Program-made: the position numbers and the translations under genes
Assembly (NCBI GenBank): GCA_034660555.1
Contig: JAYEJL010000073.1
Coordinates: 1 to 14,015 of the forward strand
Reading direction: 5' to 3'
DNA length: 14,015 nucleotides
Source: Thermotogota bacterium
GTDB taxonomy: Bacteria; Thermotogota; Thermotogae; Petrotogales; Kosmotogaceae
Part shown: piece by piece, positions 1 through 14,015 of the stretch
How the letters are laid out: each line of letters opens with the position of its first letter
How positions within the stretch are numbered: the first letter of the stretch is position 1
Notes under the pieces: generated by a model
Told to the model about the DNA's origin: nothing
The model's database searches: none
What the model saw: only the letters and a program-made list of their open reading frames with translations

Positions 1-201
1 AAATTATTAAGAAAAAACATATTATAACTAACCTAAAATTCAACGAACTACTCCCTTCAAGAAATCATAATTATTCAATACAATTATAACAACATTTAAT
101 TGCATAAGAACAACTCGTTTCTTAATACAGTAAACTGCATAGAACTATTTAGAATAATAAATTATCAGAGTTTGAAACGAAGTACAATAATGCAGAAAAA
201 T

Positions 202-229
202 AAAAAAAGGGCAAGGAAAACCTTGCCCT
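202..229 (-). terminator. Rho-independent terminator of hup
   Basis: Perfect 9-bp stem AGGGCAAGG (208-216) / CCTTGCCCT (221-229) with a 4-nt loop. A7 at 202-208 is a U-tract on the minus strand, just downstream of the hup stop (242-244). Confidence 0.9.
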
Positions 230-241
230 GTGGATGTAATA

Positions 242-514
242 CTACTTTACTTTCTTCTTCAGTTCTTTGCCAGGAACGAATTTCGGTACCTTTCCCCCTG
301 GAATTGTAATTGATTTCTTCGTTCTCGGATTTACACCTTTTCTAGCCTTTCTCTTTGCAACCTTAAATGTCCCAAATCCTACTAAACGGACCAGGTCGCC
401 TTTCGAAAGCTTCTCCTCAATAGTATCTATTATCGTGTCTAAAAGCTCTGTAGCTTCTTTCTTTGTAATGTCCGTTTTGTCAGCTAATGCATTTACCAGT
501 TCCTTCTTGTTCAT
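242..514 (-). CDS. hup: HU family DNA-binding protein (90 aa)
   Basis: MNKKELV...LVGFGTF...RKARKGVNPRT..SITIP..KVPKFVPGKELK is the HU signature. Start moved from the ORF track's 562 to ATG 514, which has GAAAGGGGGGG just upstream and gives the canonical 90 aa. Confidence 0.96.
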   Translation of the reverse strand: MNKKELVNALADKTDITKKEATELLDTIIDTIEEKLSKGDLVRLVGFGTFKVAKRKARKGVNPRTKKSITIPGGKVPKFVPGKELKKKVK

Positions 515-539
515 AATACCCCCCCTTTCAGATGGAATA

Positions 540-567
540 AATATACTATATTTTCCTTCCATTTCAA
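540..567 (-). promoter_or_regulatory. Putative sigma70-type promoter for hup
   Basis: Minus strand TTGAAA (567-562), 16-nt spacer, TATATT (545-540), upstream of the hup RBS. AT-rich background makes chance matches possible. Confidence 0.45.
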
Positions 568-663
568 AACAAGCTTATCATAGTTGTTTCGTTCTTTGCA
601 ACTTTTTAACAGGGTTCTGGTTTAATTCTGTTAAAATTAATTAAAAGTTATTTCTTAAAGCCA

Positions 664-704
664 TTTTAATGCTCATTTTATTGTTATATAATTGTCATGA
701 GCAT
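664..704 (+). promoter_or_regulatory. Putative promoter of the ABC operon with flanking inverted repeat
   Basis: TATAAT at 687-692 with a weak -35 (TTTTAA/TTTAAT, 664-670). 8-bp inverted repeat ATGCTCAT (669-676) / ATGAGCAT (697-704) brackets the -10. Confidence 0.4.
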
Positions 705-748
705 AATAGCGGTTATTCAATTAATTTTATAACAGGAGGTATCATATC

Positions 749-1675
749 ATGAAGAAAGTTCTTATGTTATTCATAGTTCTCATAATGTTATTTTCTCTTT
801 CCCTTGCAGCTCACACATTTATAAATCCACTTGGACCGACACTTCTTCCAATAGCTGAATTACTTACAGATAAGGGTGTAAGCGCGGGAGGCTTTGAAAT
901 CGAATTCTGGCGCTCGATAGATCAGGCCATTGCGGATATAGTCTCCAGAAAAGTAGAGGCTGCTCTTTTACCTGTAACTGTTGGAGGGCAACTGTCAGCT
1001 AAGGGCGTACCAATAAAACTGGCTGCGGTATCAATGTGGGATGGTTTTTATTTTGTATCAAAAGAGGAAATGACCGATGTAAAAGATCTTGAAGGAAAAA
1101 CCGTTTACACTCTTCAGGCACCGGGTCAAACAGCTGACGTAATTTTAAAAGGCTTACTGAAAAAGGAGAATATCGAAAACGTTAATATAGTATATGTTGC
1201 AGGACCGGAATCCGTTCAGCTTTTTGCAGCTGGAAAAGCTGAAATTTTGCTACTTCCTGAACCATTTGCATCACTGGCTGTAACGAAGGTCCCCGAAGCC
1301 GTAAAATCACTTCCTATTGAAAAAATGTGGAATGAATTGACAGGTAAAGACTTTTCAGTACCAACTTCAGGAATATTTGTTAGAACGAACCTAGAAACCA
1401 CAGTAGCGGATAGCTTTTTACTTTTATATGCACAGTCACTGGAGATGTCTTTGCAGAAACTGGATAAATCAGCTGCCTTCGTTTCTGAAAAAATGGGAGG
1501 ATTTCCAATTCCTGTATTGAAAAAGGCATTTTTATCAACAAAATATGAATTCAAAGCTGATAACGAAATGAGAGAAGCAGTAACCGAATACATAAAGAGT
1601 ATTAATGAAATTGATAATACGTTAATAGGCGACATTGATTTTGATGAGTTCTTCTATGAAAGTGAAGTATTTTAG
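749..1675 (+). CDS. ABC transporter substrate-binding protein, NitT/TauT (SsuA/THI5-like) type, substrate unknown
   Basis: RBS AGGAGGT at 734-740. Cys-less signal peptide MKKVLMLFIVLIMLFSLSLA. DVKDLEGKTVY and LLPEPFAS motifs are typical of this SBP class. Adjacent to permease and ATPase. Confidence 0.85.
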   Translation: MKKVLMLFIVLIMLFSLSLAAHTFINPLGPTLLPIAELLTDKGVSAGGFEIEFWRSIDQAIADIVSRKVEAALLPVTVGGQLSAKGVPIKLAAVSMWDGFYFVSKEEMTDVKDLEGKTVYTLQAPGQTADVILKGLLKKENIENVNIVYVAGPESVQLFAAGKAEILLLPEPFASLAVTKVPEAVKSLPIEKMWNELTGKDFSVPTSGIFVRTNLETTVADSFLLLYAQSLEMSLQKLDKSAAFVSEKMGGFPIPVLKKAFLSTKYEFKADNEMREAVTEYIKSINEIDNTLIGDIDFDEFFYESEVF

Positions 1676-2399
1676 ACTATGTGTTTCAATCGCAATAATA
1701 TTTAGCCTCTGGTTAACAGGCTCTTTTATAGTAGGCAATGATTTGCTTCTGCCAGGACCAGTTAAAACTATTCAGCGCCTGGCAGAATTATTCATAAGCG
1801 GCGAAATATTCTCGCCGCTTTTATTTACTACACTTAAAGCACTTGGAGGTTTATCACTTGCACTGTTTTTTTCGCTAATAATTGGTTTTGCAATGGGATT
1901 GATAGAAATCCTATATGAGATTTTCAAACCCATCATTATAACATTACAGGCAATTCCGATTGTGAGCTGGCTCGCACTCGCTATTTTATGGTGGGGTGTC
2001 GGTTTTCGCTCACCGCTTTACATAGTCTTTCTAACTCTTTTTCCAATAATTACACTAAACATTACTGAAGGGGTTAAGAATGTTGATAAAAAATTACTTG
2101 AAATGGCCCGGGTTTTTAACTTACCAAAGAAAATTGTGTTCAAAGATATTTACTTCGCTTCAGCTATGCCCTTCATTGTTTCATCTTTAAGAATAAGCTC
2201 TGGAATGATGTGGAAAACGGTAGCCGTAGCTGAATTTATGGTGGGCATTTCCGGACTGGGACGAATGATTTCTGACGCAAAATACGCACTAAACACAACA
2301 GATGTATTTGCTTTTACAGTAATACTTATCATTCTTGGAATTGTCAGTGAAATAATATTCGATAAACTTTCAAGAAGGATGATGGTTCGTGCTTCTTAA
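1656..2399 (+). CDS. ABC transporter permease, NitT/TauT (SsuC-like)
   Basis: Multiple TM segments; LLPGP, QAIPIVSW, EAA-like loop (NVDKKLLEMARVF) and VAVAEF. ATG 1656 overlapping the SBP end is preferred over TTG 1635; start is uncertain. Confidence 0.88.
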   Translation: MKVKYFRLCVSIAIIFSLWLTGSFIVGNDLLLPGPVKTIQRLAELFISGEIFSPLLFTTLKALGGLSLALFFSLIIGFAMGLIEILYEIFKPIIITLQAIPIVSWLALAILWWGVGFRSPLYIVFLTLFPIITLNITEGVKNVDKKLLEMARVFNLPKKIVFKDIYFASAMPFIVSSLRISSGMMWKTVAVAEFMVGISGLGRMISDAKYALNTTDVFAFTVILIILGIVSEIIFDKLSRRMMVRAS

Positions 2400-3069
2400 C
2401 ATCCAGGAAATTAATAAAGCTTTTGGAACACAAACTATAATTGAGAAATTCAGCCTTTCGCTTCAGGAAGGAGAATTTCTCTCCATACTTGGTAGCTCTG
2501 GTTGCGGAAAAACTACCCTATTAAGACTTGTGAGTAACCTCTTAAAACCTGATTCGGGAAAAATAGATAGAAATTATAAACGATTAGGTTTTGTTTTTCA
2601 GGACACAAGATTAATCCCATGGAAAAATGCCCTTTACAATGTCAGTGTGGTTTCAAGTGAATCAAAAGCTAAAATAATGCTTTCTGAAGTTGGGTTAATG
2701 GAACATCACAATAAATATCCAACAGAACTCAGTGGAGGGATGGAACGCAGGATTTCTCTGGCCAGAGCGTTATCCATAGAACCTCATCTGATTCTTCTCG
2801 ATGAACCTTTTGGATCCCTTGATATACTAACAAGGGAAGATATGATTAAACTTGTTCTCGAATTGTGGAAAAAACATAATTTCGCCGCAATTAATGTAAC
2901 CCATGATCCCTACGAAGCTGCTCGCCTTTCTACAAGAGTGCTTGTTGTTGGTAAACATTTCACAAAAACACAGATGCACGAGCTCGGGAGTCCTTTAGAC
3001 AGAAGTGAAACTGACAACGCAAATATCAGAAATGAATTATTGAAAACGCTTAAATCAGTGCTCGATTAA
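2389..3069 (+). CDS. ABC transporter ATP-binding protein, NitT/TauT (SsuB-like)
   Basis: Walker A GSSGCGKTT, Q-loop VFQD, signature LSGGM, Walker B/D-loop ILLDEPFGSLD, H-loop VTHD. GTG start overlaps the permease end. Confidence 0.92.
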   Translation: MLLNIQEINKAFGTQTIIEKFSLSLQEGEFLSILGSSGCGKTTLLRLVSNLLKPDSGKIDRNYKRLGFVFQDTRLIPWKNALYNVSVVSSESKAKIMLSEVGLMEHHNKYPTELSGGMERRISLARALSIEPHLILLDEPFGSLDILTREDMIKLVLELWKKHNFAAINVTHDPYEAARLSTRVLVVGKHFTKTQMHELGSPLDRSETDNANIRNELLKTLKSVLD

Positions 3070-3195
3070 TGTAGTCTCCTACTCTATTTGATAAATTAGT
3101 GGCTATTTCTTTAGAATTGCCTGTTGCTTATATTAAAATACCATTGACTCTAATCCAATTTCTGTTAAAATCGTTCGTGAGAAATTCATATTTCT

Positions 3196-3224
3196 TTGAC
3201 AATCTTATAGTATTATATTATTCT
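3196..3224 (+). promoter_or_regulatory. Sigma70-type promoter for the yceD-rpmF-plsX-glmS run
   Basis: Consensus TTGACA (3196-3201), 17-nt spacer, TATTCT (3219-3224), then RBS GAGGTGA (3234-3240) before ATG 3247. Confidence 0.7.
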
Positions 3225-3246
3225 GCTGGTCAAGAGGTGAAAGAAA

Positions 3247-3789
3247 ATGAAAACGAAAATCAAAGAACTAATCGTAGAACTGGATTCCTTTGAAAAGACG
3301 AAGCAACTGAGTGTAAGCTTTGAAAATATATACCCTGAGATTCGATGCGATGAACCCATCTACGTAGATGTATTTCTGTACAAAGAAAAAAACTCTGTAA
3401 TTGTTAGCGGAACAGTCAAAACAAAGGTTATTGAAAAGTGTGCCAGATGTTTGAAGGATGTTATTGTACCAATTAATGGAACTGTAGAGGCTGTTTATTT
3501 ACCAGCCAGAAAATTCTTCAAAGAAGTGGATAGCGGAGCTTCAGAGGACCTTGAAAACACATTACCCCTCGACAGTGATATACTGGACTTGTCAGAGCGC
3601 GTATTAGAGGCTATAATAGTAGAGATACCCTTTAAAGTACTCTGCTCTGAAAATTGCAGAGGATTATGTCCTATTTGCGGTATTAATCTAAACGAGAACC
3701 CTGATCATAATTGCGAACAGAAGAATGAAAGCAACGATAAATGGCATAAATTATTGAGCGATTTGAAGGAAAACATACGAAACGGATAG
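3247..3789 (+). CDS. yceD: DUF177/YceD family protein
   Basis: CARCL and P.KVLCSENCRGLCPICGINLN motifs; conserved position directly upstream of rpmF. Confidence 0.92.
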   Translation: MKTKIKELIVELDSFEKTKQLSVSFENIYPEIRCDEPIYVDVFLYKEKNSVIVSGTVKTKVIEKCARCLKDVIVPINGTVEAVYLPARKFFKEVDSGASEDLENTLPLDSDILDLSERVLEAIIVEIPFKVLCSENCRGLCPICGINLNENPDHNCEQKNESNDKWHKLLSDLKENIRNG

Positions 3790-3809
3790 TTTAGAACAGG
3801 AGGGACATC

Positions 3810-3992
3810 ATGGCTGTACCAAAGCAAAAACGTTCACGATCGAGAACACGATTGAAAAGAGCTAAAATTTACAGAGCAAAAAGTGTTGCAATTTCAACAT
3901 GCCCTAATTGCGGAGCTCCAAAAGAGCCTCACAGAGTATGTCTTAGTTGTGGATACTACGGAGGAAAGCAGATTCTAGAGATAGGTGAATAA
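3810..3992 (+). CDS. rpmF: 50S ribosomal protein L32 (Zn-ribbon form)
   Basis: MAVPKQKRSRSRT...CPNCG...PHRVCLSCGYY; RBS AGGAGG upstream. Confidence 0.98.
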   Translation: MAVPKQKRSRSRTRLKRAKIYRAKSVAISTCPNCGAPKEPHRVCLSCGYYGGKQILEIGE

Positions 3993-3993
3993 T

Positions 3994-4995
3994 ATGAAAA
4001 GGGTAACAATTGCCCTTGATGCATACGGTGGAGATCAGGCGCCAAAAATTAACATTGATGGCGCTATTTCGTTTTTAAATAGGGAATCCAAAAATGTTGA
4101 GATACTTCTTGTGGGAAAAGAAAACGAGCTCAAAGATCTTCTAAATGAGAAAGATTATACAGGTGAACAAATACACATAGTTGATGCACCTGATGTTTTT
4201 GGAATGGCTGAAAAACCTTCTCTCGCAATACGAAAGAAAAACACATCCTTGTATAAAACATCTCAGCTTGTAAAAGAAGGGAAAGCGAACGCTATGGTAT
4301 CAGCGGGAAACACCGGTGGTGTTCTCGCGGTTGCTCTGTTCGTGGTGGGAAGAATAAAAGGAATTGAAAGAGGTGCTATTGCAACACCTGTACCCTCAAA
4401 AAAAGGTTTTACGGTTTTGCTGGACTCGGGGGCAAATCTGGAGGTTAGAGCTTCTCACCTAAGAGATTTTGCAATTATGGGAACAGAATATGCCAGGATT
4501 TTGAAGATCAACAATCCAAAAGTTGGACTGTTAAATGTTGGAGAAGAAGATGAAAAGGGAACCGATCTGCTTAAAGAAACCTTTGCTCTACTCAAAGAGA
4601 GGTTTACAGATAGTTTCGTAGGAAACGTAGAAGGTAGGGATATTGTAGCAGGAGACGTAGACGTTATAGTTACTTCGGGACTGCTAGGCAATATCGCGAT
4701 AAAGTCGATAGAGGGAGCTGCCAAATATATATCAACGTTACTTAAAAGTGAAATAAAATCTTCAGGACCCCTGGGCTTATTGGGTGGAGCGTTATTAAAG
4801 GGTACCTTTGACAAACTAAGAAAGAAACTCGACCCAAATCAGTATGGTGGTGCCTTTGTACTGGGTGTGAATGGTATTGTGACTAAAGCACACGGGAGCT
4901 CAAACGCCACAGGTATTGAAAATGCCCTGAATGTCGCATATAAAGGAGTGACAGGTAACCTTGTGGATAAGCTTAAAGATAATCTCAGGAGTTAA
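3994..4995 (+). CDS. plsX: Phosphate acyltransferase PlsX
   Basis: IALDAYGGD, VSAGNTG, LLDSGAN, VGLLNVGEE..KG, GNVEGRD and KAHGSS motifs; follows rpmF. ATG 3994 is preceded by AGGTGA (GTG 3985 is an alternative start). Confidence 0.96.
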   Translation: MKRVTIALDAYGGDQAPKINIDGAISFLNRESKNVEILLVGKENELKDLLNEKDYTGEQIHIVDAPDVFGMAEKPSLAIRKKNTSLYKTSQLVKEGKANAMVSAGNTGGVLAVALFVVGRIKGIERGAIATPVPSKKGFTVLLDSGANLEVRASHLRDFAIMGTEYARILKINNPKVGLLNVGEEDEKGTDLLKETFALLKERFTDSFVGNVEGRDIVAGDVDVIVTSGLLGNIAIKSIEGAAKYISTLLKSEIKSSGPLGLLGGALLKGTFDKLRKKLDPNQYGGAFVLGVNGIVTKAHGSSNATGIENALNVAYKGVTGNLVDKLKDNLRS

Positions 4996-4998
4996 TCT

Positions 4999-6825
4999 AT
5001 GTGTGGAATTGTAGGAATGACCGGTAACGGAATAACTATTTCCAATCTGGTAGGTGCTTTAAAGAAGCTGGAGTATAGAGGTTACGATTCTGCAGGTGTT
5101 GCTTACCTTAACAATAATGAAGTAGAAATAATAAAATCAGTAGGAAAAATAAAAGAGCTGGTTAGCGAACTGGGAGAAGATATCAATATAAATATAGATA
5201 CCGGGATAGCCCATACACGATGGGCCACTCATGGTGCACCAAATGATGTCAACGCTCACCCTCATACAGATTGCACGGGAAAAATTGCTGTGGTGCATAA
5301 CGGTATTATCGAAAATTATGAAGAAATCAGACGCTATCTTAAGGATAAAGGACATAAGTTTGATTCTGAAACCGATACAGAAGTCATAGCCCATCTTGTA
5401 GAAGAATACTTCAATGGAGATCTGGTCGATGCTGTAAGACATGCTTTAGTTGACCTTGTTGGAGCTTACGCAATCGGTGTTATACACGCTGACAATGAAA
5501 AAGAGATTGTGGCTGCAAGAAAGGGGAGCCCTTTAGTTGTTGCATCCACCTCACAGGGCGGTTTTATCGCTTCTGATGTTACTCCACTACTATCATACTT
5601 GAATGATGTTTATTTCATGGAAGACGGCGATGTGGCTTTAGTAAGACCTGGCGAAGTTAGCTTTACAGGGATAGACGGTTCAAAACTAGACCGATCTCCA
5701 ACTCACATCTCATGGACTGAAGAAGCTGCAGAAAAGGGTGGATTCGCTCATTTCATGCTCAAAGAAATCTTTGAAGAGCCACATACTTTGAGAAATGCAA
5801 TGGCAGGCAGGATCAAGAACAACCTGGCATATTTTGAAGAACTGGAAAAAATGAAAGACCAAATAAAGAATGCAAAAACCGTTCAAATAGTTGCCTGCGG
5901 AACGAGTTATCATGCAGGTCTTGTTTTTAAAAGATTTCTTGAAGATTATGCCGGACTGACTGCAGAAATAGATGTAGCGTCAGAATTCAGATATCGTAAT
6001 ATACACATTGATGAAAATACACTGGTTTTCGCAATATCTCAATCTGGTGAAACCGCAGATACTTTAGAAGGAATCAGGCAGGTCAATTCGAGAAACGGCA
6101 AATCCATTTCCTTTACGAATGTCGTTGGATCAACCATTTCAAGAGAATCAGATACTGTCATATATTTGAATGCTGGCCCGGAAATAGGTGTTGCTGCTTC
6201 GAAGACCTATGTTTCTCAACTAATGGTTTTGCTTTTAACCGGTATATATATTTCATACTTGCGTGGTAACAATGTTGATAAATTGATATCACTAACAAAT
6301 GAGCTTGAAAGTATGCCAACACTGTTTGAAAATGTGTTGTCAAAGGCTGATTATATAACACAAGAACTGGCCAGGGAATATCACAAATATTTGCACTTTA
6401 TGTATATAGGACGTGGCTATAGCTACGCCACAGCCCTTGAGGGAGCTTTAAAGCTTAAAGAAATAAGTTACATTCATGCTTCAGGATACCAGTCAGGCGA
6501 ACTAAAGCATGGTCCCATAGCGTTGCTGGATGAAAATTTTCCTGTTTTTGCCATTGTGCCTGATGATAAACTAAAAGGAAAAACATTATCCAATGTTATG
6601 GAAACAAGAGCCCGTAACGCTAAAGTCGTTGCAATATGCTCGGAAAATGATAAGGATGTAAGTAGAGTCGTCAATAGCAGAATTGATACGCCTATTGTAA
6701 GTGAACCACTGTATCCTTTGATCATGTCACCCTATTTACAGCTATTCGCATATCACGTTGCAGTACTTAAAGGACACGATCCTGACAAACCGAGAAATCT
6801 TGCTAAAAGTGTGACAGTTGAATAG
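4999..6825 (+). CDS. glmS: Glutamine--fructose-6-phosphate aminotransferase (isomerizing)
   Basis: MCGIVG N-terminal nucleophile Cys, LEYRGYDSAG, HTRWATHG, HNGIIEN, SQSGETADT, GELKHGP, C-terminal PRNLAKSVTVE. Confidence 0.98.
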   Translation: MCGIVGMTGNGITISNLVGALKKLEYRGYDSAGVAYLNNNEVEIIKSVGKIKELVSELGEDININIDTGIAHTRWATHGAPNDVNAHPHTDCTGKIAVVHNGIIENYEEIRRYLKDKGHKFDSETDTEVIAHLVEEYFNGDLVDAVRHALVDLVGAYAIGVIHADNEKEIVAARKGSPLVVASTSQGGFIASDVTPLLSYLNDVYFMEDGDVALVRPGEVSFTGIDGSKLDRSPTHISWTEEAAEKGGFAHFMLKEIFEEPHTLRNAMAGRIKNNLAYFEELEKMKDQIKNAKTVQIVACGTSYHAGLVFKRFLEDYAGLTAEIDVASEFRYRNIHIDENTLVFAISQSGETADTLEGIRQVNSRNGKSISFTNVVGSTISRESDTVIYLNAGPEIGVAASKTYVSQLMVLLLTGIYISYLRGNNVDKLISLTNELESMPTLFENVLSKADYITQELAREYHKYLHFMYIGRGYSYATALEGALKLKEISYIHASGYQSGELKHGPIALLDENFPVFAIVPDDKLKGKTLSNVMETRARNAKVVAICSENDKDVSRVVNSRIDTPIVSEPLYPLIMSPYLQLFAYHVAVLKGHDPDKPRNLAKSVTVE

Positions 6826-6882
6826 ACTGTGCCTGAAGAAAAGATTATATAAATAGAACAATAATAATCGGGAGGTGAATTT

Positions 6883-7233
6883 TTGGATAAGGAGATTACT
6901 GATATCGTAGGTATACTTGATAACAATGAAGCTGAAGACGTTATGGTACTTGACGTACAAAAGGTATCCAATCTAACCAGTTATTTCATAATAGCCACCG
7001 CGAATTCTGATCCTCACATGGAAGCGCTTAGAGACAAAATATTAGAATATGTAAAAAAAGATAATATTCCTGTAATCTATTACGACCATGGTAAAGGTTA
7101 TGATTGGATGGTTGTTGATTGTGGATTCTTCATTGCACATCTCTTCAGCAAAAAAGGAAGAGATTTTTATTCGCTGGAAAATCTATGGCTCAACGCAAAA
7201 AGTTATAAATTGGAAGAAATACTAAATAAATAA
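6883..7233 (+). CDS. rsfS: Ribosome silencing factor RsfS (Iojap family)
   Basis: DVMVLDV, YFIIATANS, WMVVDCG...HLF...RDFYSLENLW pattern; TTG start with RBS GGAGGTGA at 6871-6878. Confidence 0.92.
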   Translation: MDKEITDIVGILDNNEAEDVMVLDVQKVSNLTSYFIIATANSDPHMEALRDKILEYVKKDNIPVIYYDHGKGYDWMVVDCGFFIAHLFSKKGRDFYSLENLWLNAKSYKLEEILNK

Positions 7234-7234
7234 T

Positions 7235-7308
7235 CCCACACAGTCTTATCACTGATAACCCCGGTGCCCACAATACGGGTCGGTTATCAACGGGCTGGAG
7301 GGAAAACC
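7235..7308 (+). ncRNA. Ribosomal protein S2 (rpsB) leader, cis-regulatory RNA (t44-like)
   Basis: 5' CACAC motif. Stems CAGTCT (7241-46)/GGGCTG (7292-97), TGATAACC (7253-60)/GGTTATCA (7282-89) and GCCC (7266-69)/GGGT (7277-80). GGAGG after the stem, and bulged GGT (7263-65) complementary to ACC (7306-08) as in the known S2-leader pseudoknot. Lies directly upstream of rpsB. Confidence 0.85.
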
Positions 7309-7327
7309 AAACGGAGGTGTTTTTTAA

Positions 7328-8182
7328 GTGCCAGTAGTTACAATGAAAAAACTGCTCGAAGCAGGAGTACATTTTGGACACAGAACAAGAAGATGGAATC
7401 CCAAAATGCAGCCCTACATTTATGGAGAAAGAAAGGGCATTTACATCGTTGATCTTCAGAAAACCCTTAAATGGATCGACCGGGTCTACGATTTCGTTAA
7501 ATCCAGGTCTCAGGAAAACGCTACGTTTCTCTTTGTGGGAACAAAGAGACAGGCCCAGGAAATTATTGAAGAAGAAGCAAATCGCTGTGGTGCTTTCTAT
7601 GTAAACAATAGATGGCTTGGTGGATTGTTGACGAATTTTGAAACAATACGAAAACGAACCAGTGCTTTAAAACGCTACGAAGAAATGGAAGAGACCGGAG
7701 AAATCGATAAAATGCCCAAAAAAGAGCAGAGTATGCTGAGAAGAGATTTCGATAAGCTGAGAAAAAATCTAAATGGTGTTAAAAATATGGAGAGATTACC
7801 TGATGTTGTTTTTGTAGTCGATACCCAAAAAGAAGAGATAGCAGTTGCAGAAGCCAACAAACTGGAAATTCCGGTTATCGGAATTGCTGATACCAACAGT
7901 GATCCCGATGTATTAGATTTTTTTATTCCAGGCAACGATGACGCCATAAGAGCAATAAAGCTTATCACAAGTATTATTTCTGATGCCATTCTTGAAGGCA
8001 GAGAAGGACTCGATACTGGTGCATCAGAAAAACCAAAAGAAACCACAGAAGAAAAACCAAAAGAAGAAGAAAAATCAGAAGACACGAAAGAGAAAAAAGA
8101 AGTAGCTGCAGCTGAAGAAGAGGCGTCAGGTAATTTGCCTGACGAAGACAGCGATCTCGATGAAGATGAAGATGAGTTATAA
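7328..8182 (+). CDS. rpsB: 30S ribosomal protein S2 with acidic C-terminal extension
   Basis: [43 protein letters not shown] and [10 protein letters not shown] motifs. GTG start with RBS GGAGGTG at 7313-7319. Confidence 0.98.
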
Positions 8183-8199
8183 TTGATCACAAAATAAAG

Positions 8200-8226
8200 A
8201 AGACTGCCTTAGGGCAGTCTTTTTTT
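8200..8226 (+). terminator. Rho-independent terminator after rpsB
   Basis: Stem AAGACTGCC (8200-08) / GGCAGTCTT (8213-21), loop TTAG, followed by a T-run to 8226. Confidence 0.9.
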
Positions 8227-8239
8227 ATAGTTTGATTTT

Positions 8240-8268
8240 CTGAAAAAAGCTGACAAATATAGTAAAAT
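8240..8268 (+). promoter_or_regulatory. Possible miaB promoter
   Basis: CTGAAA (8240-45), 17 nt, TAAAAT (8263-68), between the rpsB terminator and the miaB RBS (AGGAG 8284-88). Confidence 0.35.
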
Positions 8269-8296
8269 TTAAAGAGAAAAAACAGGAGAGATAATT

Positions 8297-9628
8297 TTGA
8301 AGATATATTTTAGAACCTTTGGTTGCCAGATGAACGTAAATGACTCAGAAACCATGGCTGGTATTCTTAAAAATGCAGGTCATGAGATTATTGATACCGA
8401 GAACAACGCTGACGCCGTAATAATAAACAGCTGTGCTGTAAGAGGCAAGTCTGAAAGAAAGGCTTATGGCAAACTGGGAAGACTCAAAGCGTTAAAGAAA
8501 AAAAAGAACGATTTGATTATTGGCTTTGGTGGATGTGTTGCTGAAAAAGAGAGAAAGAAGTTACTTGAATCCCATGAAGAATTGAATTTCGTTTTCGGAA
8601 CCCGAAATATTTCACAAATAAATGATTTCATCGAAAGAGCTTCAAAGGGAGAGCACTTCACTGATTTTTCAGATAAACTAGATGAGTTAGACTCAACAAC
8701 ACCACGATACAGAGAAAGTAATCATCATGCCTGGGTTACTATCATATACGGATGCGATAAGTTCTGCAGTTACTGCATAGTGCCTTATGTAAGAGGTAGA
8801 GAGAAGAGCAGAAAGATGGAAGACATTATCTCCGAAGTGAGAAAACTCGCTGACAACGGATACAAAGAAATCACATATCTCGGGCAAAATGTTGATTCTT
8901 ACGGCAATGATCTTGATGATGACACATCTTTATCAAAGCTAATAAAAGAAACATTAAAGATTGAGGGAATAGAAAGAATCTGGTTCCTTACATCTTACCC
9001 AAAAGATTTTTCAGAAGAACTCATTGAAACAATTGCTTCATCGGACAGAATATCAAAATCGATACATTTGCCCATACAATCAGGAAGTAACAAAATACTA
9101 AAAGCGATGAACAGAGGATATACAAGAGAAGAGTATTTGGAGCTTATTAGTAAAGTCAAAGAAAAATTACCCGAAGCATCATTAAGTACCGATCTCATTC
9201 TAGGCTTTCCCGGTGAAACAGAAAACGATTATCTGGAAACGAAAGAACTGCTTAAAATCGTGCGCTACGATAGAGTGAACTTTGCTGTTTATTCACCTCG
9301 TGAAGGAACGTTATCAGCAAGAAAATACGAAGACAATGTCCCTCATAAAGTCAAAACAGCACGATTAAATGAACTTCTCGAACTCCAGAAATCCATAAAT
9401 CAAGAGAAAAACGAACAATACATTGGAAAAAACGTAGAAATAATAGTTGAAGGCGTTTTGAAGGATGGAAATCTTTATGGGAGAACAATAACAAACAAAA
9501 TTGTAATATTCTCTGGTCCAAAAGAACTAATAGGTGAAAAAGCCGAAATAGAGATTCATAATATATCTGCAGGCCCCTTAAGGGGCATTTTGAGTACAAA
9601 AAATCTTCAACCCTCCCGAGAGCATTAG
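8297..9628 (+). CDS. miaB: tRNA-2-methylthio-N6-dimethylallyladenosine synthase MiaB
   Basis: UPF0004 N-terminus TFGCQMN..DSE, NSCAVR and GCVAE; radical-SAM CDKFCSYC followed by IVPYVRGREKSR; GFPGET; YSPREGT; C-terminal TRAM domain. TTG start with RBS. Confidence 0.95.
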   Translation: MKIYFRTFGCQMNVNDSETMAGILKNAGHEIIDTENNADAVIINSCAVRGKSERKAYGKLGRLKALKKKKNDLIIGFGGCVAEKERKKLLESHEELNFVFGTRNISQINDFIERASKGEHFTDFSDKLDELDSTTPRYRESNHHAWVTIIYGCDKFCSYCIVPYVRGREKSRKMEDIISEVRKLADNGYKEITYLGQNVDSYGNDLDDDTSLSKLIKETLKIEGIERIWFLTSYPKDFSEELIETIASSDRISKSIHLPIQSGSNKILKAMNRGYTREEYLELISKVKEKLPEASLSTDLILGFPGETENDYLETKELLKIVRYDRVNFAVYSPREGTLSARKYEDNVPHKVKTARLNELLELQKSINQEKNEQYIGKNVEIIVEGVLKDGNLYGRTITNKIVIFSGPKELIGEKAEIEIHNISAGPLRGILSTKNLQPSREH

Positions 9629-9646
9629 AACCTAGAAGTTTTTAAA

Positions 9647-9680
9647 TACGTAAAACGCACGGCCTACCAGCGTACAACGT
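9647..9680 (+). repeat. Degenerate ACAACG(C/T) heptamer block, copy 1
   Basis: TACGTAAAACGCACGGCCTACCAGCGTACAACGT, 25/34 identical without gaps to 10085-10118. Confidence 0.7.
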
Positions 9681-9693
9681 GTTTAGTCTTTAA

Positions 9694-9738
9694 AAAATTC
9701 ACACACCCGCCTTCGGCTCGCCCTCTCTAGAGGACATT
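9694..9738 (+). repeat. Twin-hairpin REP-like unit A1
   Basis: CACACACCC, GCC-TTC-GGC hairpin, GCCCTCT-CT-AGAGGAC hairpin, ATT. 43/45 identical to 10129-10173. Confidence 0.9.
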
Positions 9739-9776
9739 CAAAAACTTTAAACCCCGCTAATATACAGTGTTTTAAA

Positions 9777-9820
9777 AATCTCCCCTTACGAGGGGAGTCC
9801 TGCGAAGCAGGGGGGGTGTC
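9777..9820 (-). repeat. Twin-hairpin REP-like unit B (inverted relative to A)
   Basis: Plus strand: AAT, CTCCCCT-TACG-AGGGGAG, T, CCTGC-GAA-GCAGG, GGGGGTGTC. Confidence 0.85.
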
Positions 9821-9843
9821 AGGTTTTTGAATTACGCTCCAAA

Positions 9844-9887
9844 AATCCACCCTTGAGGGCAGGGGACCGCCTGCGGTGGTGGGTGTT
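9844..9887 (-). repeat. Twin-hairpin REP-like unit C (inverted relative to A)
   Basis: Plus strand: AAT, CCACCCT-TG-AGGGCAG (imperfect, G-T pairs on the minus strand), GGG, ACCGC-CT-GCGGT, GGTGGGTGTT. Starts 67 bp after B. Confidence 0.85.
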
Positions 9888-9910
9888 AATTTTCTCGAAT
9901 TCTCGTTTAT

Positions 9911-9957
9911 ATTCTCCTCTGTCAGAGGAGGGGACCGCGTTAGCGGTGAGGTGTGTG
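9911..9957 (-). repeat. Twin-hairpin REP-like unit D (inverted relative to A)
   Basis: Plus strand: ATT, CTCCTCT-GTC-AGAGGAG, GGG, ACCGC-GTTA-GCGGT, GAGGTGTGTG. Starts 67 bp after C. Confidence 0.85.
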
Positions 9958-9982
9958 TTTCTGATTTTTGATCCGTGTAGCG

Positions 9983-10061
9983 CATATGCATGCCTTCATC
10001 TGGCATACATATCCTGCTATCCCTCCAGCAGCATATCCGATTGTTTCCCAAATCGCATATC
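9983..10061. repeat. Mini-array of three hairpins joined by CATAT(C/G) linkers
   Basis: Linkers at 9983 (CATATG) and 10008, 10032, 10056 (CATATC). Hairpins ATGCC/GGCAT, CTGCT/AGCAG and CGATT/AATCG with 7-8-nt loops. Confidence 0.85.
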
Positions 10062-10084
10062 AACGGTTTAGAGTATTTTGAACT

Positions 10085-10118
10085 TACGAACAACGCACAA
10101 CCCACTGACGCACAACGT
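10085..10118 (+). repeat. ACAACG(C) heptamer block, copy 2
   Basis: TACGA ACAACGC ACAACCC ACTGACGC ACAACGT; precedes unit A2 just as copy 1 precedes A1. Confidence 0.75.
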
Positions 10119-10128
10119 CTCTTCGTGT

Positions 10129-10173
10129 AAAATTCACACACCCGCCTTCGGCTCGCCCTCTCAAGAGGGCATT
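10129..10173 (+). repeat. Twin-hairpin REP-like unit A2
   Basis: AAAATTCACACACCCGCCTTCGGCTCGCCCTCTCAAGAGGGCATT; direct repeat of A1 at 435-bp offset with a perfect GCCCTCT/AGAGGGC stem. Confidence 0.9.
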
Positions 10174-10202
10174 AAAAGCCAAAAGGATAATGGTCCACGT
10201 GT

Positions 10203-10278
10203 TTTTCTCGGATTCTCGGGCTCTCGGATTCTCGTCTTCTGGATCCCTCTCGAATTCTCGTCTACTTGATTTCTCTCG
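10203..10278. repeat. Octamer short tandem repeat tract with TCTCG core
   Basis: TCTCG at 10206, 10214, 10222, 10230 (8-bp period), then 10248, 10256 and 10274. Two more cores at 9893 and 9901. Confidence 0.85.
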
Positions 10279-10292
10279 TTTCCTGTAAATGG

Positions 10293-11447
10293 TCATCTAA
10301 ACACATTTATCGAAATATTAACCATGATAATGCAGAACATAGTAAATAACCCACCAAGAACGAGTTTAACTTTTGCAGCAGCTTCAGAAGATTTCATGAA
10401 TTCCTGTATCTTTTTTGTAGAAGAAGTATAGTAAGCAACTAGCGTTATTCCTATTACCGGTATTATGAAACCAATATTGTAAATAATCAAAAATCCAAGA
10501 GCCTCAGTATTTAAACCAACGCTGTTTATAACGTAAACAATTGTTGGCAGGTAAACCTGTCCGGTGCACATGAATTCAACAAAGGATATCAGAAGACCAG
10601 TAACCAAAGAAGCAAGCCATATCGTTTTCGCATGGGCATTTTTTCTTATTATTTCGTGAGTCTTTCTCTTAAGTCCTGGAGTTAATTCAAGAACACCCTT
10701 TTTACCTTTATATTTCATTCTAAAGAAATCATTTATAGATAGTATGGCAAGTAGTCCGGTAAAAACTGCCATTGCAGGATAAAAAATTAGCTGAAATATT
10801 CGAGAAATATTCTGAAGATAACCCACTGCTCCAAGCAATCCAGTCCCCATCGCTATGTATGCAGCGAACAATCCCAAAGCAAAATATAATCCAGCTATTA
10901 ATATTTCGTTTTTACTGCGTCCAACGTAGAATAAATATGAAACAAGGAAGATTAAAACAACAAAAGCGCAGGGATTGATTCCATCTATCAACCCTGCGCC
11001 AAGCACAATGAAGAAACTGAATTCTTCATAACGGCTCTTTATGCGCTGCGTAACATCTTCTTCCAATTCTTCAATTTCTTTAAGTTTGTTCTGTCTGACT
11101 TCTTCCGAATAATTTTCTATCGCACCAACAAGGTTATCTACTTTTATTTCTTCACCAAATAGAACTTCATTGCCTACAAAAATAATTGGATAAACATCAT
11201 AATTTTCTTCAGCGAGATCATAAACCTTTGCATATTTCAGCTTGAGTTCTTGATTTTTGGCTTCAGAAAGTAGAAACTTATTTACAACAATTTCCGCATC
11301 CACTTCAAATTTTGCGTTTTCAATAGTCATTTCAGCTTCCAGACATTCCTGACAGGTCGATACGCCGAAATAATCTATAACAACTTCGCTTCCAAATGAA
11401 ATTATTGTTATGAAAAATAGCAAGAAAAAACAAAGATATTTCTTCAT
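10293..11447 (-). CDS. Thioredoxin/glutaredoxin-like CxxC domain fused to a CcdA/DsbD-like transmembrane domain
   Basis: N-terminal signal/anchor, YFGVSTCQEC, YPIIFVG cis-Pro-like motif. About six TM helices carry the two Cys motifs DGINPCAF and EFMCTGQVYLP. RBS GAGGA upstream. Confidence 0.8.
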   Translation of the reverse strand: MKKYLCFFLLFFITIISFGSEVVIDYFGVSTCQECLEAEMTIENAKFEVDAEIVVNKFLLSEAKNQELKLKYAKVYDLAEENYDVYPIIFVGNEVLFGEEIKVDNLVGAIENYSEEVRQNKLKEIEELEEDVTQRIKSRYEEFSFFIVLGAGLIDGINPCAFVVLIFLVSYLFYVGRSKNEILIAGLYFALGLFAAYIAMGTGLLGAVGYLQNISRIFQLIFYPAMAVFTGLLAILSINDFFRMKYKGKKGVLELTPGLKRKTHEIIRKNAHAKTIWLASLVTGLLISFVEFMCTGQVYLPTIVYVINSVGLNTEALGFLIIYNIGFIIPVIGITLVAYYTSSTKKIQEFMKSSEAAAKVKLVLGGLFTMFCIIMVNISINVFR

Positions 11448-11460
11448 AGATTCCTCATTT

Positions 11461-13191
11461 TTACTTCCCTAAAGTCTCGTCAATTGTATAGAAATTTTCA
11501 GGCCAATCTCGATCTAAAGGACATATACCTTTAGGGTCATCAATAATATTGTTCTCTCCAAGAATCGTACCTCTGAAAACTGAGCCTCCACAACCACAAT
11601 CAGTACACATTCTTAGATAAAGATCAAGTCCATGAAGTATATTTGAATAGAACTTATTTTCATTGAGGGTAACTATTGAATCAGAATTTATAAGAATACC
11701 ATTTTCTTCATTACGTGTAACATGATTTGAAATAAGATAGCCGGTAGAATCTCCTGCCAGTGATACACCTACACGATTTCTATCAAATCTATTATCATTT
11801 ACTTTAAAAAGCAAATCGTTTGTCATCATAATTCCAGTTCCGCAATTCTTTACTGTGTTTGAATTCAAAAATAACCTTCCTTCTCCATATGCGTAAATCC
11901 CATAATATCTATCTCCGGGAAGATCTTCTACATCTTCTTCTTCAAGTGTAGATATATAACTGTCCTTAATGAGTAAATCGTTTTTTCCCGAACTGTATGT
12001 AAGAGCCGTTTTACCTCCAATAAGTTTGCAATTAATTATTTGCCCTGTGGATCTTGAAACCATTACAGAACGTTCTGCATCAATTATGGTAAGATTTTCT
12101 ATGCTGAATCCATTTGCCTGTCTTATATATATTCTTGCATTGCTTGATTTATCCGACTTAATGACAACAGAATCCCTATCTACACCTCTTAAAATAATCC
12201 CTTTAGTGATGCTTAAAGTTTCTTCATAAGTTCCCGGATGTACAAGAACGATATCGCCAGCCTTTGCAGCGTTGATAGCACTTTGAATTGTTGAATACAT
12301 GTCTTCTTCTGTACCAACTTCAATAATATTGCCTACTGTTTTATCAATAACCTTTATGTGAAATCTCTTTAGTTCACCATCTTCCTCATTACTGTTTATC
12401 CTAAAAATTACTTCATGTTCCTCTTTATCGTTAATGGAAGGAAGGTAATAATAATTTCCTTCATATGATAGGACTCCAGGTCCATCAACCAGCTCAAATC
12501 TACCTTTTTCATTAACTTCCAGCTGTTCATTTAGATCAATTTTTAATACCTCGTATCTGATTACTTCAAAAATCGTTTTTAAATCATCATAAGCAGGAGA
12601 AGCGGTTTTTTCCTCAACAATGAGAACAAAATGCTCGCTAATTTCATTACCACGATTATCCTTTACAGATATTCTTACTGGATGAATTCCAGGCAGTGCA
12701 GAACCTTCAAAAGCTTTATAAATGCGTTCTTCTATCTTTCCAGTGCCCTCAATGAGTTCATAGCTTATTTCATCACCATCCGGGTCTTCAAAGTATTCAT
12801 CGAGATTTAGCTCTATTATATCTCCTTCCATAAATCTCATGTCCTTTATCTCTCCAACAGGTGCATGATTGACATCTATAACTGTAATTTTAAAAGTACT
12901 TTTAAGCTCTTTCTTGTTTGAATCCCTTACCAGAACAGTAACTTCATGCTCTCCAGCAGAATCATAGTCAGGAGTGTAATGGTACTTGCCTTGATAAACA
13001 TAACCAACTCCAGAAACCTTAGCAAATTCAAGTGGTTCTTTCAGTGTTTCAGAAGCGTATTCTTTGAGTTCAATTTCAAGCTTTGAACCTTCTTCAATTT
13101 CTTGATCAGGAACTGCAAACGTATATTTGGTACATGAAGAAAGTAAACCAATAAAAATGAGAGCTATTAATAGAGATAATATTTTTTTCAT
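11461..13191 (-). CDS. Lipoprotein with ~3 Ig/cadherin-like repeats and a C-terminal right-handed beta-helix (NosD/pectin-lyase-like) domain
   Basis: Lipobox LSSC (Cys20). Repeats contain YTPDYDSAGEHEV, VIDVNHAP and FEDPDGDEISY. STIQSAINAAKAGDIVLVHPGTYEE is a beta-helix cap, followed by N/G-rich coils and a CTDCGC motif near the C-terminus. RBS GGAGGGG at 13202-13196. Confidence 0.8.
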   Translation of the reverse strand: MKKILSLLIALIFIGLLSSCTKYTFAVPDQEIEEGSKLEIELKEYASETLKEPLEFAKVSGVGYVYQGKYHYTPDYDSAGEHEVTVLVRDSNKKELKSTFKITVIDVNHAPVGEIKDMRFMEGDIIELNLDEYFEDPDGDEISYELIEGTGKIEERIYKAFEGSALPGIHPVRISVKDNRGNEISEHFVLIVEEKTASPAYDDLKTIFEVIRYEVLKIDLNEQLEVNEKGRFELVDGPGVLSYEGNYYYLPSINDKEEHEVIFRINSNEEDGELKRFHIKVIDKTVGNIIEVGTEEDMYSTIQSAINAAKAGDIVLVHPGTYEETLSITKGIILRGVDRDSVVIKSDKSSNARIYIRQANGFSIENLTIIDAERSVMVSRSTGQIINCKLIGGKTALTYSSGKNDLLIKDSYISTLEEEDVEDLPGDRYYGIYAYGEGRLFLNSNTVKNCGTGIMMTNDLLFKVNDNRFDRNRVGVSLAGDSTGYLISNHVTRNEENGILINSDSIVTLNENKFYSNILHGLDLYLRMCTDCGCGGSVFRGTILGENNIIDDPKGICPLDRDWPENFYTIDETLGK

Positions 13192-13245
13192 TATGCCCCT
13201 CCGATTAAAGTATACTAAAATAGACTGGTATAATATTCTTTGTTG

Positions 13246-13302
13246 ATTATATCATGACCTACACAGTAAAGGAATATAGATTTCATTGATCAATGATATA
13301 AT
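13246..13302. promoter_or_regulatory. Back-to-back extended -10 elements with an overlapping 14-bp palindrome
   Basis: TGATATAAT on the minus strand (13254-13246) and plus strand (13294-13302). Perfect palindrome TCATTGATCAATGA at 13283-13296. Confidence 0.55.
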
Positions 13303-13333
13303 TTACAGTGATCTACAACGTGAAAAAGATACT

Positions 13334-13361
13334 TTTACAGAAAATGAAAAGAGTGTATAAT
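13334..13361 (+). promoter_or_regulatory. Alternative putative promoter for the rightward lipoprotein
   Basis: TTTACA (13334-39), 16 nt, TATAAT (13356-61). Confidence 0.4.
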
Positions 13362-13438
13362 TATTGAAGCTGTGATATTCGCAACATTGTTTATTTTAAT
13401 ATACAAATTCACGCCAAAATTGGTGGAGGTGCAAAAAA

Positions 13439-14015
13439 GTGAAAAAAACAATACTATATGTTCTTATAGTTGCTTTGCTTGTTATGTTTGCAGGTTGTCC
13501 TACCCTATTTAATCCATTTGATTTACCTGATGATCCGTTAATTGCTAACGAGGGTGAAACGTTCACACTTGATTTAACAACGTACACGGACGCTGTCAAT
13601 ATTAAGGATATTAGTTATGAAGTAACACCTAATGAAGATGATATTGTAGTTGGAGAAATTATAGGCCAAAAATATGTTTGGGATGACCCTAAATTCAATG
13701 AAGAAACAGATGGTAAAGAGAAAATTACAATTGAAGCCAACAATAATCGTGGAAGAGTTGTCAGTGATACTCTCACAATTATCGCTAATAGACCACCATC
13801 TGTTCCAAAGTTAAAAGAACCTGATGATGGAGAAACAGTAACCATACCAGTTGAACTTAAATGGGAATCGTCAGATCCAGAAAATGATGTATTAAAGTTT
13901 CATGTTTATTTTGGTACAAATGGTAATATAAAACAAGAACAGTCAAATCTTACGAAAGAAGTCTTCGAAATAGACAGTCTTGATCAAGAAGATACTTATT
14001 ACTGGTTCATTGTAT
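13439..14015 (+). CDS. Lipoprotein with Ig-like and fibronectin type III-like domains (3' truncated by window)
   Basis: Not in the ORF track; translated by hand. RBS GGAGGTG 13425-31, GTG start, MKKTILYVLIVALLVMFAGC lipobox, open for 192 codons to the window end. NRPPSVP..PDDG..VELKWESSDPENDVLKFHVYFGT...TYYW is an Fn3-like pattern. Confidence 0.88.
   Translation, partial: MKKTILYVLIVALLVMFAGCPTLFNPFDLPDDPLIANEGETFTLDLTTYTDAVNIKDISYEVTPNEDDIVVGEIIGQKYVWDDPKFNEETDGKEKITIEANNNRGRVVSDTLTIIANRPPSVPKLKEPDDGETVTIPVELKWESSDPENDVLKFHVYFGTNGNIKQEQSNLTKEVFEIDSLDQEDTYYWFIV

Follow-up and report, generated by a model that had tools for sequence, protein, structure and literature searches.

REPs are defined, in the portion of PMC12306157 used here, as short, extragenic, palindromic sequences that share a common consensus and occur in multiple copies. 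Classic REPs exceed 100 copies, and in BIMEs the REPs follow one another in alternating orientation, according to the portion of PMC2817692 considered. For the tagged GTAG and CGTC REPs (Di Nocera et al. 2013, PMC3733652), the sections used place the elements mainly between co-directional and convergent ORFs. In the same sections, the CGTC families have an unpaired tag and 8–9-bp stems with A-T in the first two positions, head-to-tail order is negligible for CGTC REPs, and CGTC-3 REPs are reported in Kosmotoga olearia and Mesotoga prima. In REPINs, two REPs in inverted orientation make up a doublet that folds into a single long hairpin (PMC3116915).

Palindromic repeats in Thermotogota have so far been catalogued only coarsely. 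CRISPR arrays consist of identical repeats of 24–48 bp and unique spacers at one or a few loci. Nostoc-type cyanobacteria reportedly carry small dispersed repeats (SDRs), hairpin elements of 21–27 nt among tandem heptamer repeats. SDR families are said to share a fold despite little sequence similarity, with compensatory changes and with nested or adjacent insertions.

We analysed a stretch of 14,015 nt from a Thermotogota bacterium (Kosmotogaceae; GenBank assembly GCA_034660555.1, contig JAYEJL010000073.1, positions 1–14,015 of the forward strand), referred to below as the window. A preliminary description of it had pointed out an array of small hairpins between CATATG and CATATC linkers. With a probability of roughly two thirds (0.68), this array belongs to a family of dispersed intergenic repeats that is low in copy number, restricted to the genus and REP/BIME-like in function. 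The portions of the literature searched hold no description of a CATATC-linked hairpin array in Thermotogota. New is a defined repeat family with a CATATC tag, three covarying pairs and strict head-to-tail order; as it stands, it is an ordinary kind of feature.

Compared with REPs as defined above, the units are extragenic, form stem-loop palindromes and are short (REPs measure 14–40 nt) with a common consensus. A covariance model matches 21 of them in this genome and 13–24 in genus mates, which makes them multicopy but by an order of magnitude fewer than classic REP families; the assemblies break at repeats, and these numbers are lower bounds. As far as the cited portion of PMC3733652 allows the comparison, the units resemble GTAG/CGTC REPs in being short stem-loops outside genes, present in several copies and carrying a conserved, unpaired tag at their foot. 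They also resemble them in that sub-types differ in the stem, in their convergent or co-directional spacers, and in the RAYT-like Y1 gene that adjoins copies here. Measured against the same portion, they differ in their tag, (G)CATATC, and in their stems, which have 5–6 bp starting with C-G and not 8–9 bp. They further differ in numbering about 20 copies per genome and not hundreds, in standing head to tail and never as inverted pairs, and in a link between array and Y1 gene that is not reproducible across the genus. The REP-like reading itself is weakened by a tag that is neither GTAG nor CGTC, by weak stems and by a count of about 20 units per genome, far below that of classic REPs. Nor did the arrays reveal any transposition intermediate, empty site or target duplication.

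With the BIMEs of E. coli the arrays share the character of intergenic mosaics of palindromic units and short linker motifs, the number of units varying between loci. Unlike in BIMEs, the units all point one way, and different hairpin types sit on one shared linker. The strict head-to-tail order, as opposed to BIME alternation, is a further point against a REP-like reading, and together with the one shared tag it departs from classic REP/BIME architecture. As in the REPIN/RAYT system (Bertels and Rainey 2011, PMC3116915), the Y1 gene is single-copy and its flank includes a palindromic k-mer that ranks among the most repeated in the genome; here, however, there are no inverted doublets, and flanking copies are missing in three of the four genus mates.

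Architecture of the array and its spacer

The array lies in a 664-nt spacer between two convergent genes, a RimO/MiaB-like radical-SAM gene (8297–9628, plus strand) and a membrane-protein gene (10293–11447, minus strand). Read on the plus strand, its first linker is the variant CATATG (9983–9988), which is CATATC in the paralogs C87 and C140. Three CATATC linkers follow at 10008–10013, 10032–10037 and 10056–10061, the last of them closing the array. The linkers begin at intervals of 25, 24 and 24 nt, and the inserts between them (19, 18 and 18 nt) each form a perfect 5-bp terminal stem with a pyrimidine-rich loop of 7–8 nt. In order they read C-ATGCC-ttcatct-GGCAT-A, CTGCT-atccctcc-AGCAG and CGATT-gtttccca-AATCG. 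The three hairpins and the spacing of their linkers are present exactly as the preliminary description gave them.

Unit 1 (9989–10007, plus strand, 19 nt) is of the CATGCC..GGCATG type, which also occurs in C87, in C140 and at the genus-mate locus L035; its outermost pair has decayed to C-A here. Unit 2 (10014–10031, plus strand, 18 nt) belongs to the CTGCT..AGCAG type, with 11 perfect distinct copies counted over this genome and the genus loci examined. Unit 3 (10038–10055, plus strand, 18 nt), of the CGATT..AATCG type, is the commonest unit and usually the last of an array. It has 26 perfect distinct copies, and its pattern matches 12 times in this genome and 15 times in the four genus mates.

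The array is preceded by a leader (9970–9982, plus strand) composed of xATC and a short GC-closed mini-hairpin, here gATC-CGTGTAGCG. Paralogs have ATC-CGCgaaGCG, ATC-CGCCaaaGGCG or CCGAcgtaGTCG at this site, and ..ATC with a short stem (GAA, AAA or GTA-type loop) stands before the first linker in nearly all arrays. Behind the last linker follows a conserved AAYGGTTT-like tail (10062–10069, plus strand), which reads AACGGTTT here; the downstream flanks of most arrays show aatgg, aaagg, aacgg or agtgg and then ttt.

Two ORFs run over the array, at 9683–10141 on the minus strand and 9853–10071 on the plus strand, both without a Pfam match. We rejected a coding repeat with a 24-nt (8-codon) period on the grounds that the overlapping ORFs have no Pfam match and that units occur in both orientations in spacers. 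The Rfam comparison suggested at the outset left the array without a match: with the Rfam 15 covariance models and E-values up to 10, the sole hit was anti-hemB at 9740–9813, outside the array, with 18.6 bits against a gathering score of 49.5.

The rest of the spacer is a mosaic of other modules. A double-hairpin module ending in GGTGTGTG (9912–9957, plus strand) lies outside the array proper and is found upstream of many arrays; its 9934–9957 part has 8 copies in the genome, and 14 of the listed family arrays have a GGGTGTG-type module no more than 110 nt upstream. On the other side, a run of ACAAC-type heptamers (10076–10118, plus strand; 12–15 copies) often follows the arrays. The mosaic element TTCACACACCCGCC.. 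(49 nt, family D2) at 10129–10177 on the plus strand is repeated at 9694–9742 with 94% identity. This 49-nt direct repeat, which starts with AAAATTCACACACCCGCC (TTCACACACCC element), comprises two small hairpins, occurs twice in the spacer of the window and has about 11–14 copies in the genome, usually downstream of ACAAC-type heptamers.

At 9779–9830, 9845–9890 and 9912–9957 lie three double-hairpin modules, paralogous to one another, that end in GGGGTGT or GGTGTGTG. Their stems covary between copies, several of them score terminator-like on one or both strands, and the below-threshold anti-hemB match falls on the first copy. Degenerate tandem heptamers of the TTCTCG(A/G) and ACAACNN types were noted at 9892–9905, 10205–10272 and 10080–10118. 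Other mosaics of the genome contain heptamers of the GGTTCAC, TGGACGA and AAACCCC types, and the TGGACGA-type modules may be CGTC-3 REPs. Heptamer-rich spacers are known from some cyanobacteria, and the heptamers of the window resemble them. Tiny hairpins among heptamers would be common to the arrays and the SDRs; the phylum and the sequences differ.

Hairpin pairing and stem covariation

We scanned the genome (2.1 Mb, 36% G+C) with a grammar of CATATC or CATATG linkers, inserts of 17–20 nt and terminal stems of 5 bp or more. The scan gave 21 linker pairs and 14 hairpin units, in chains of one (7), two (2) and three units (1). Ten dinucleotide-walk shuffles of the whole genome, a control named with the preliminary description, yielded 1–9 linker pairs and not a single hairpin unit in any of them. 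As a second control, a linker-only pattern (three CATATC at 24-nt spacing) was searched in unrelated viral and metagenome sequence; this control is silent on the wider range of the hairpin-array family. Among the matches listed, hairpin inserts occurred in 0/216 viral and 5/223 metagenome matches, at least four of these five (locus L195) being a simple AT-rich satellite, and the scans otherwise returned unrelated tandem satellites or scattered matches. The hairpin array is real and not due to chance. In one metagenome an unrelated, hairpin-free satellite of 12/24 nt (TTCTGGCATTCTATCTGGCATATC-like) was found at many contig ends (L108, L112, L116 and others).

Of 48 linker pairs with 18-nt inserts, not selected for pairing, 21 have a stem of 5 bp or more, as against none at insert lengths of 11, 12, 16 and 21–24 nt. 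Smaller peaks at 13 and 15 nt correspond to shorter unit classes of the family. When candidates with at least 4 of 5 pairs were collected, 87 of 121 were perfect units.

An alignment of 33 distinct 18-nt units from this genome and its genus mates has the consensus CATATCCGATTGTTTCnCAAATCGCATATC with a mean column identity of 84%. All units share the scaffold C-NNN-TG-pyrimidine loop-CAA-N'N'N'-G: C comes first in the stem, T-G leads into the loop, C-A-A leads out of it and G is last. The linker is the most invariant part of the unit, its ATC being invariant. Only the three middle stem pairs vary, and they do so on both sides, with all 35 cells paired; the covariation score was reached by 0/500 shuffles, and pairing collapsed to 19–44% when the partner columns were slid by 1–3 positions. 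The 33 units were chosen for pairing, which makes the 100% pairing figure circular, and the stem changes represent few independent events (about 4–9 stem types, four main types on one scaffold). The original observation that length and pairing are kept while the sequence varies is thus borne out in three of the five stem pairs, which change on both sides. The compensatory changes are observed; that selection acts on the hairpin, and at which level, is inferred from these few independent events and from an alignment picked for pairing.

The linker, which had initially been taken for unstructured, takes part in the fold. Its ATAT core pairs with the ATAT of the next linker and lengthens the hairpins to 9 pairs around a C-C mismatch on the plus strand or G-G on the minus strand; unit 1 is an exception, with a C-A mismatch on the plus strand and a G-T pair on the minus strand. 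As each linker is shared, adjacent units compete for pairing with it. The hairpin stems have energies of −2.6 to −7.7 kcal/mol as DNA at 37 °C. A closure of the whole array into a multi-branch fold by CCGT and ACGG, also proposed in the preliminary description, is used in the minimum-energy fold of the window; we rejected it because the paralogs do not keep the closing stem. Over 21 arrays, the longest complementary run between the flanks averages 3.14, compared with 2.87 ± 0.15 for re-paired flanks, and 33/500 re-pairings reached the observed value.

A strand-specific RNA would offer another explanation of these hairpins, either as an sRNA or 3'-UTR module whose several hairpins titrate an RNA-binding protein, or through loops that mimic Shine-Dalgarno or anti-Shine-Dalgarno sequences. 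The array does fold better than shuffles, and it does so on both strands (z = −2.45 on plus, −3.51 on minus). Loop composition is kept, as G-YYYY-CA on the plus strand, and the array sequence is present in RNA-library contigs of relatives, where carry-over of DNA is possible. These are Logan contigs from three RNA libraries and one DNA run, of relatives at about 90% identity; they are uninformative on strand, ends and level, and the word depth over bins of the array sums many repeat loci. Among single imperfect pairs, G-T does not outnumber A-C: the counts are 7 and 9 when all candidates are taken, and about 4 and 6 when clear family members are picked by eye, so that neither strand is favoured as the folded one. 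Towards co-directional neighbours the arrays are sense in five cases and antisense in four. Given in addition the missing Rfam match and the lack of the array at orthologous loci (see below), we consider such an RNA very improbable.

The specific version of this idea, a CsrA/RsmA sponge read from GGA motifs on the minus strand, was rejected. The linkers do read GGAUAUG on that strand in 33/33 units; the loops, however, contain GGA in only 18/33. A CsrA gene (PF02599) was found in none of the five genus genomes (0/5, 92–99% complete) by a search that was positive in the Thermotoga maritima control, and there is neither strand bias nor positional conservation.

Dispersal in the genome and range across relatives

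Almost every part of the window spacer is repeated in the genome when searched with blastn-short. Whole-array paralogs lie at C140:295–408 (83% over 114 nt) and C87:11291–11208 (87% over 84 nt), and unit 3 has about 17 further copies. A relaxed grammar scan gave 31 chains, 23 of which were judged by eye to be family members in repeat mosaics and 8 to be chance-like; BLAST added three arrays with degenerate linkers. In total we count about 22–25 arrays of 1–4 units in the 2.1-Mb genome. The assemblies are fragmented, with many arrays at contig ends, so that counts are lower bounds and contexts are incomplete. Repeats of this kind break assemblies. A CRISPR array was rejected for this locus: the constant part measures only 6–7 nt, and the inserts are a few recurring hairpin types at more than 20 loci. 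Overlapping 14-mers around CAGCAGGTACTTGACACAAC and ATTTTTACAGCAGG, with 8–9 copies in the genome, may stem from a CRISPR repeat or from a different repeat family.

The units measure 13–20 nt plus a 6-nt tag and fall into recurrent types. Those of 18 nt are CGATT..AATCG, CTGCT..AGCAG, CGTGT..ACACG and CGCCT..AGGCG, those of 15 nt CTGAGC..GCTCAG and CTGATC..GATCAG; the CGAGC..GCTCG type has 13 nt and the CATGCC..GGCATG type 19 nt. Within an array they follow a preferred order, CG..CG types first, CTG..CAG in the middle and CGATT or CGCCT last. Arrays open with ..ATC and a GC-closed mini-hairpin and close with CATATC-AAYGGTTT, and all chained units in the listed arrays share one orientation. Differences between arrays, for example C183 versus C26, are the exact presence or absence of hairpin-plus-linker blocks. 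The three-unit arrangement of the window recurs in a genus mate (L035).

All 25 listed arrays are intergenic with respect to ORFs of at least 120 aa, and two of them overlap only ORFs that run through repeat mosaic without a Pfam match. Among the 15 spacers whose two flanking ORFs are both on the contig, 6 are convergent, 9 co-directional and 0 divergent, as tallied by hand with any ORF of 120 aa or more counted as a gene. With five arrays sense and four antisense to co-directional genes, no strand bias is seen.

IHF and gyrase bind at BIMEs. By analogy, the array might be a set of protein-binding sites on double-stranded DNA, with CATATC sites 19–25 bp apart, or small cruciforms, as the recognized element. 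An invariant ATC within the most invariant part of the unit, the lack of strand asymmetry and the location at 3' ends of genes would agree with this. Unit types, however, differ in their spacing (19, 21, 24 or 25 bp), so that the sites are out of helical phase; an array of bare sites also leaves the compensatory, palindrome-keeping changes in the inserts unexplained, and no candidate protein for the CATATC sites was found. We regard this explanation as highly unlikely.

The range of the family is narrow. A covariance model (R1) built on the 18-nt unit scored 21 units in the genome of the window; in the four genus mates it scored 24, 13, 21 and 16, whereas 36 genomes from 11 further genera in the same family and order gave none. 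A pattern search agrees with this range. Both kinds of search had been called for in the preliminary description, and both returned further copies in the genome of the window and its four genus mates. In a named genome collection, 15 of 16 matching loci belong to MAGs titled Kosmotogaceae, Petrotogales or Thermotogaceae. The sixteenth (L030) is an exact match to unit 3 in a MAG titled Clostridiales, which may be a mis-binned contig or the result of a transfer.

The positions of the arrays turn over between species. In the nearest genus mate (G001; C-terminal part of the rimO protein 93% identical), the same pair of genes encloses a 770-nt mosaic of other modules that lacks a CATATC array. G004 has a different neighbourhood, free of repeats at this place, and the array locus of C188 likewise differs between species. 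In an RNA-library contig from a relative, 210 other letters stand in place of 444 between the rimO end (9633) and position 10078. Because other modules make up the orthologous spacer in the sister species, we assign no locus-specific role to the array. A unique structured RNA is not supported either, since the array is dispersed, confined to the genus, absent from the orthologous spacer and without strand preference. This is a warning to annotators and RNA-gene hunters that well-folding, covarying multi-hairpin stretches can be dispersed repeats in these genomes.

For the REP/BIME-like repeat family that we favour, the following mechanism is proposed. The unit is a short palindrome on a fixed scaffold, preceded by the unpaired (G)CATATC tag, with a stem of 5–6 bp and a loop of 3–8 nt, pyrimidine-rich on the plus strand; only the middle pairs vary. 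Units form head-to-tail arrays of 1–4, which lie as one module in the repeat mosaics of spacers at 3' ends of genes, and the hairpin is the feature preserved. Whole units would be gained or lost at identical linkers by slippage or by recombination between the 6–7-bp direct repeats, and whole arrays with neighbouring modules may be copied to new spacers. The mechanism is partly demonstrated, by the dispersal, the covariation, the modular differences and the turnover described above, while slippage and any effect on the host are inferred. The latter is most likely generic (3'-end RNA structure, DNA structure or a binding site) and not that of a dedicated sRNA.

A Y1 transposase gene next to two arrays

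The preliminary description had also considered an array of single-stranded recognition sites for a nuclease. The genome contains a single PF01797 gene, at C87:11445–11843, and this Y1 gene is flanked by two arrays: a three-unit paralog of the window's array 155 nt upstream and a one-unit array about 460 nt downstream, both on the strand opposite to the gene. The arrays may be recognition sites of this kind; the link to the Y1 gene fails in three of the four genus mates. The gene has an in-frame TAG after residue 133, behind which the frame continues for about 108 residues. The RAYT-like gene with this continuation spans C87:11445–12170 (L001 1468–2193).

A Y1 (HUH) transposase of the RAYT/IS200 kind could mobilise the hairpins as cassettes. 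The enzyme would bind the folded, single-stranded hairpin and cut at the CATATC tag; the unit, a hairpin with one CATATC, would insert 3' of a CATATC and regenerate the target, so that arrays grow head to tail in one orientation. IS200/IS605 elements insert 3' of a fixed short target, and the strict one-way orientation and exact unit-sized differences of the arrays would fit such insertion. The best NCBIfam match of the gene is REP-associated tyrosine transposase, with 61.5 bits versus 22.5 for IS200. An HVH motif and the tyrosine in RYVERNP, which we take to be the catalytic motifs, precede the in-frame stop. In a 14-mer test of the Y1 flanks, done in the manner of PMC3116915, the commonest 14-mer of the upstream flank is that of the array, with 8 copies in the genome.

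Several observations stand against this transposase model. The copy in the genome of the window is itself interrupted by the TAG, and the REP_Tyr_transpos scores of 61–64 bits lie below the 80-bit cut-off. In terms of a REPtron, arrays flank the Y1 gene in the genome of the window, one lies about 650–800 nt upstream of it in G003, and none is present within about 1.5 kb in G001, G002 and G004. The array in G003 would agree with the model, but it sits in a mosaic that is missing from G004 at the same place. Homologs occur in 17 of 41 relatives, most of them without the repeat and including 7 of the 11 genera that lack it, and the flanks of Y1 genes of other genera (L015–L021) contain no hairpin arrays. 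As mosaics fill many spacers, adjacency in one genome could be chance.

The syntenic Y1 genes of the genus mates, moreover, follow a palindrome of their own that contains GGGACAGACCC. A GGGGWSAS motif is reported for TIR-associated Y1 genes in the portion of PMC3733652 considered. The GGGACAGACCC palindrome fits this motif, which suggests that the genus-mate Y1 may have a different cognate site.

A link between the arrays and the RAYT-like Y1 transposase is therefore possible but weak, and we think it unlikely that this enzyme mobilises the hairpins. That hairpin and CATATC form a mobile cassette of roughly 19–25 nt, moved on single-stranded DNA by an HUH/Y1 enzyme and inserted 3' of CATATC, seems to us quite unlikely. 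The further part of that proposal, in which the target is recreated with each insertion, arrays assemble themselves head to tail and the three variable stem pairs mark lineages, appears just as doubtful. If it were true, the hairpin cassette would be among the smallest known mobile cassettes, and unit-wise mobility would provide a simple system for how very small palindromic elements multiply.

A CAAAAATAGGGACAGACCCTATTTTTG-type palindrome was observed just upstream of syntenic Y1 genes in genus mates and another genus, at the loci L091 (G003), L092 (G004), L022, L023 and L020. The motif persists in the genome of the window at C184 near position 5335, with no Y1 gene after it. The Y1 protein of this genome shares about 75% identity with homologs from other genera, which are thus closer to it than the genus-mate homologs (58–62%).
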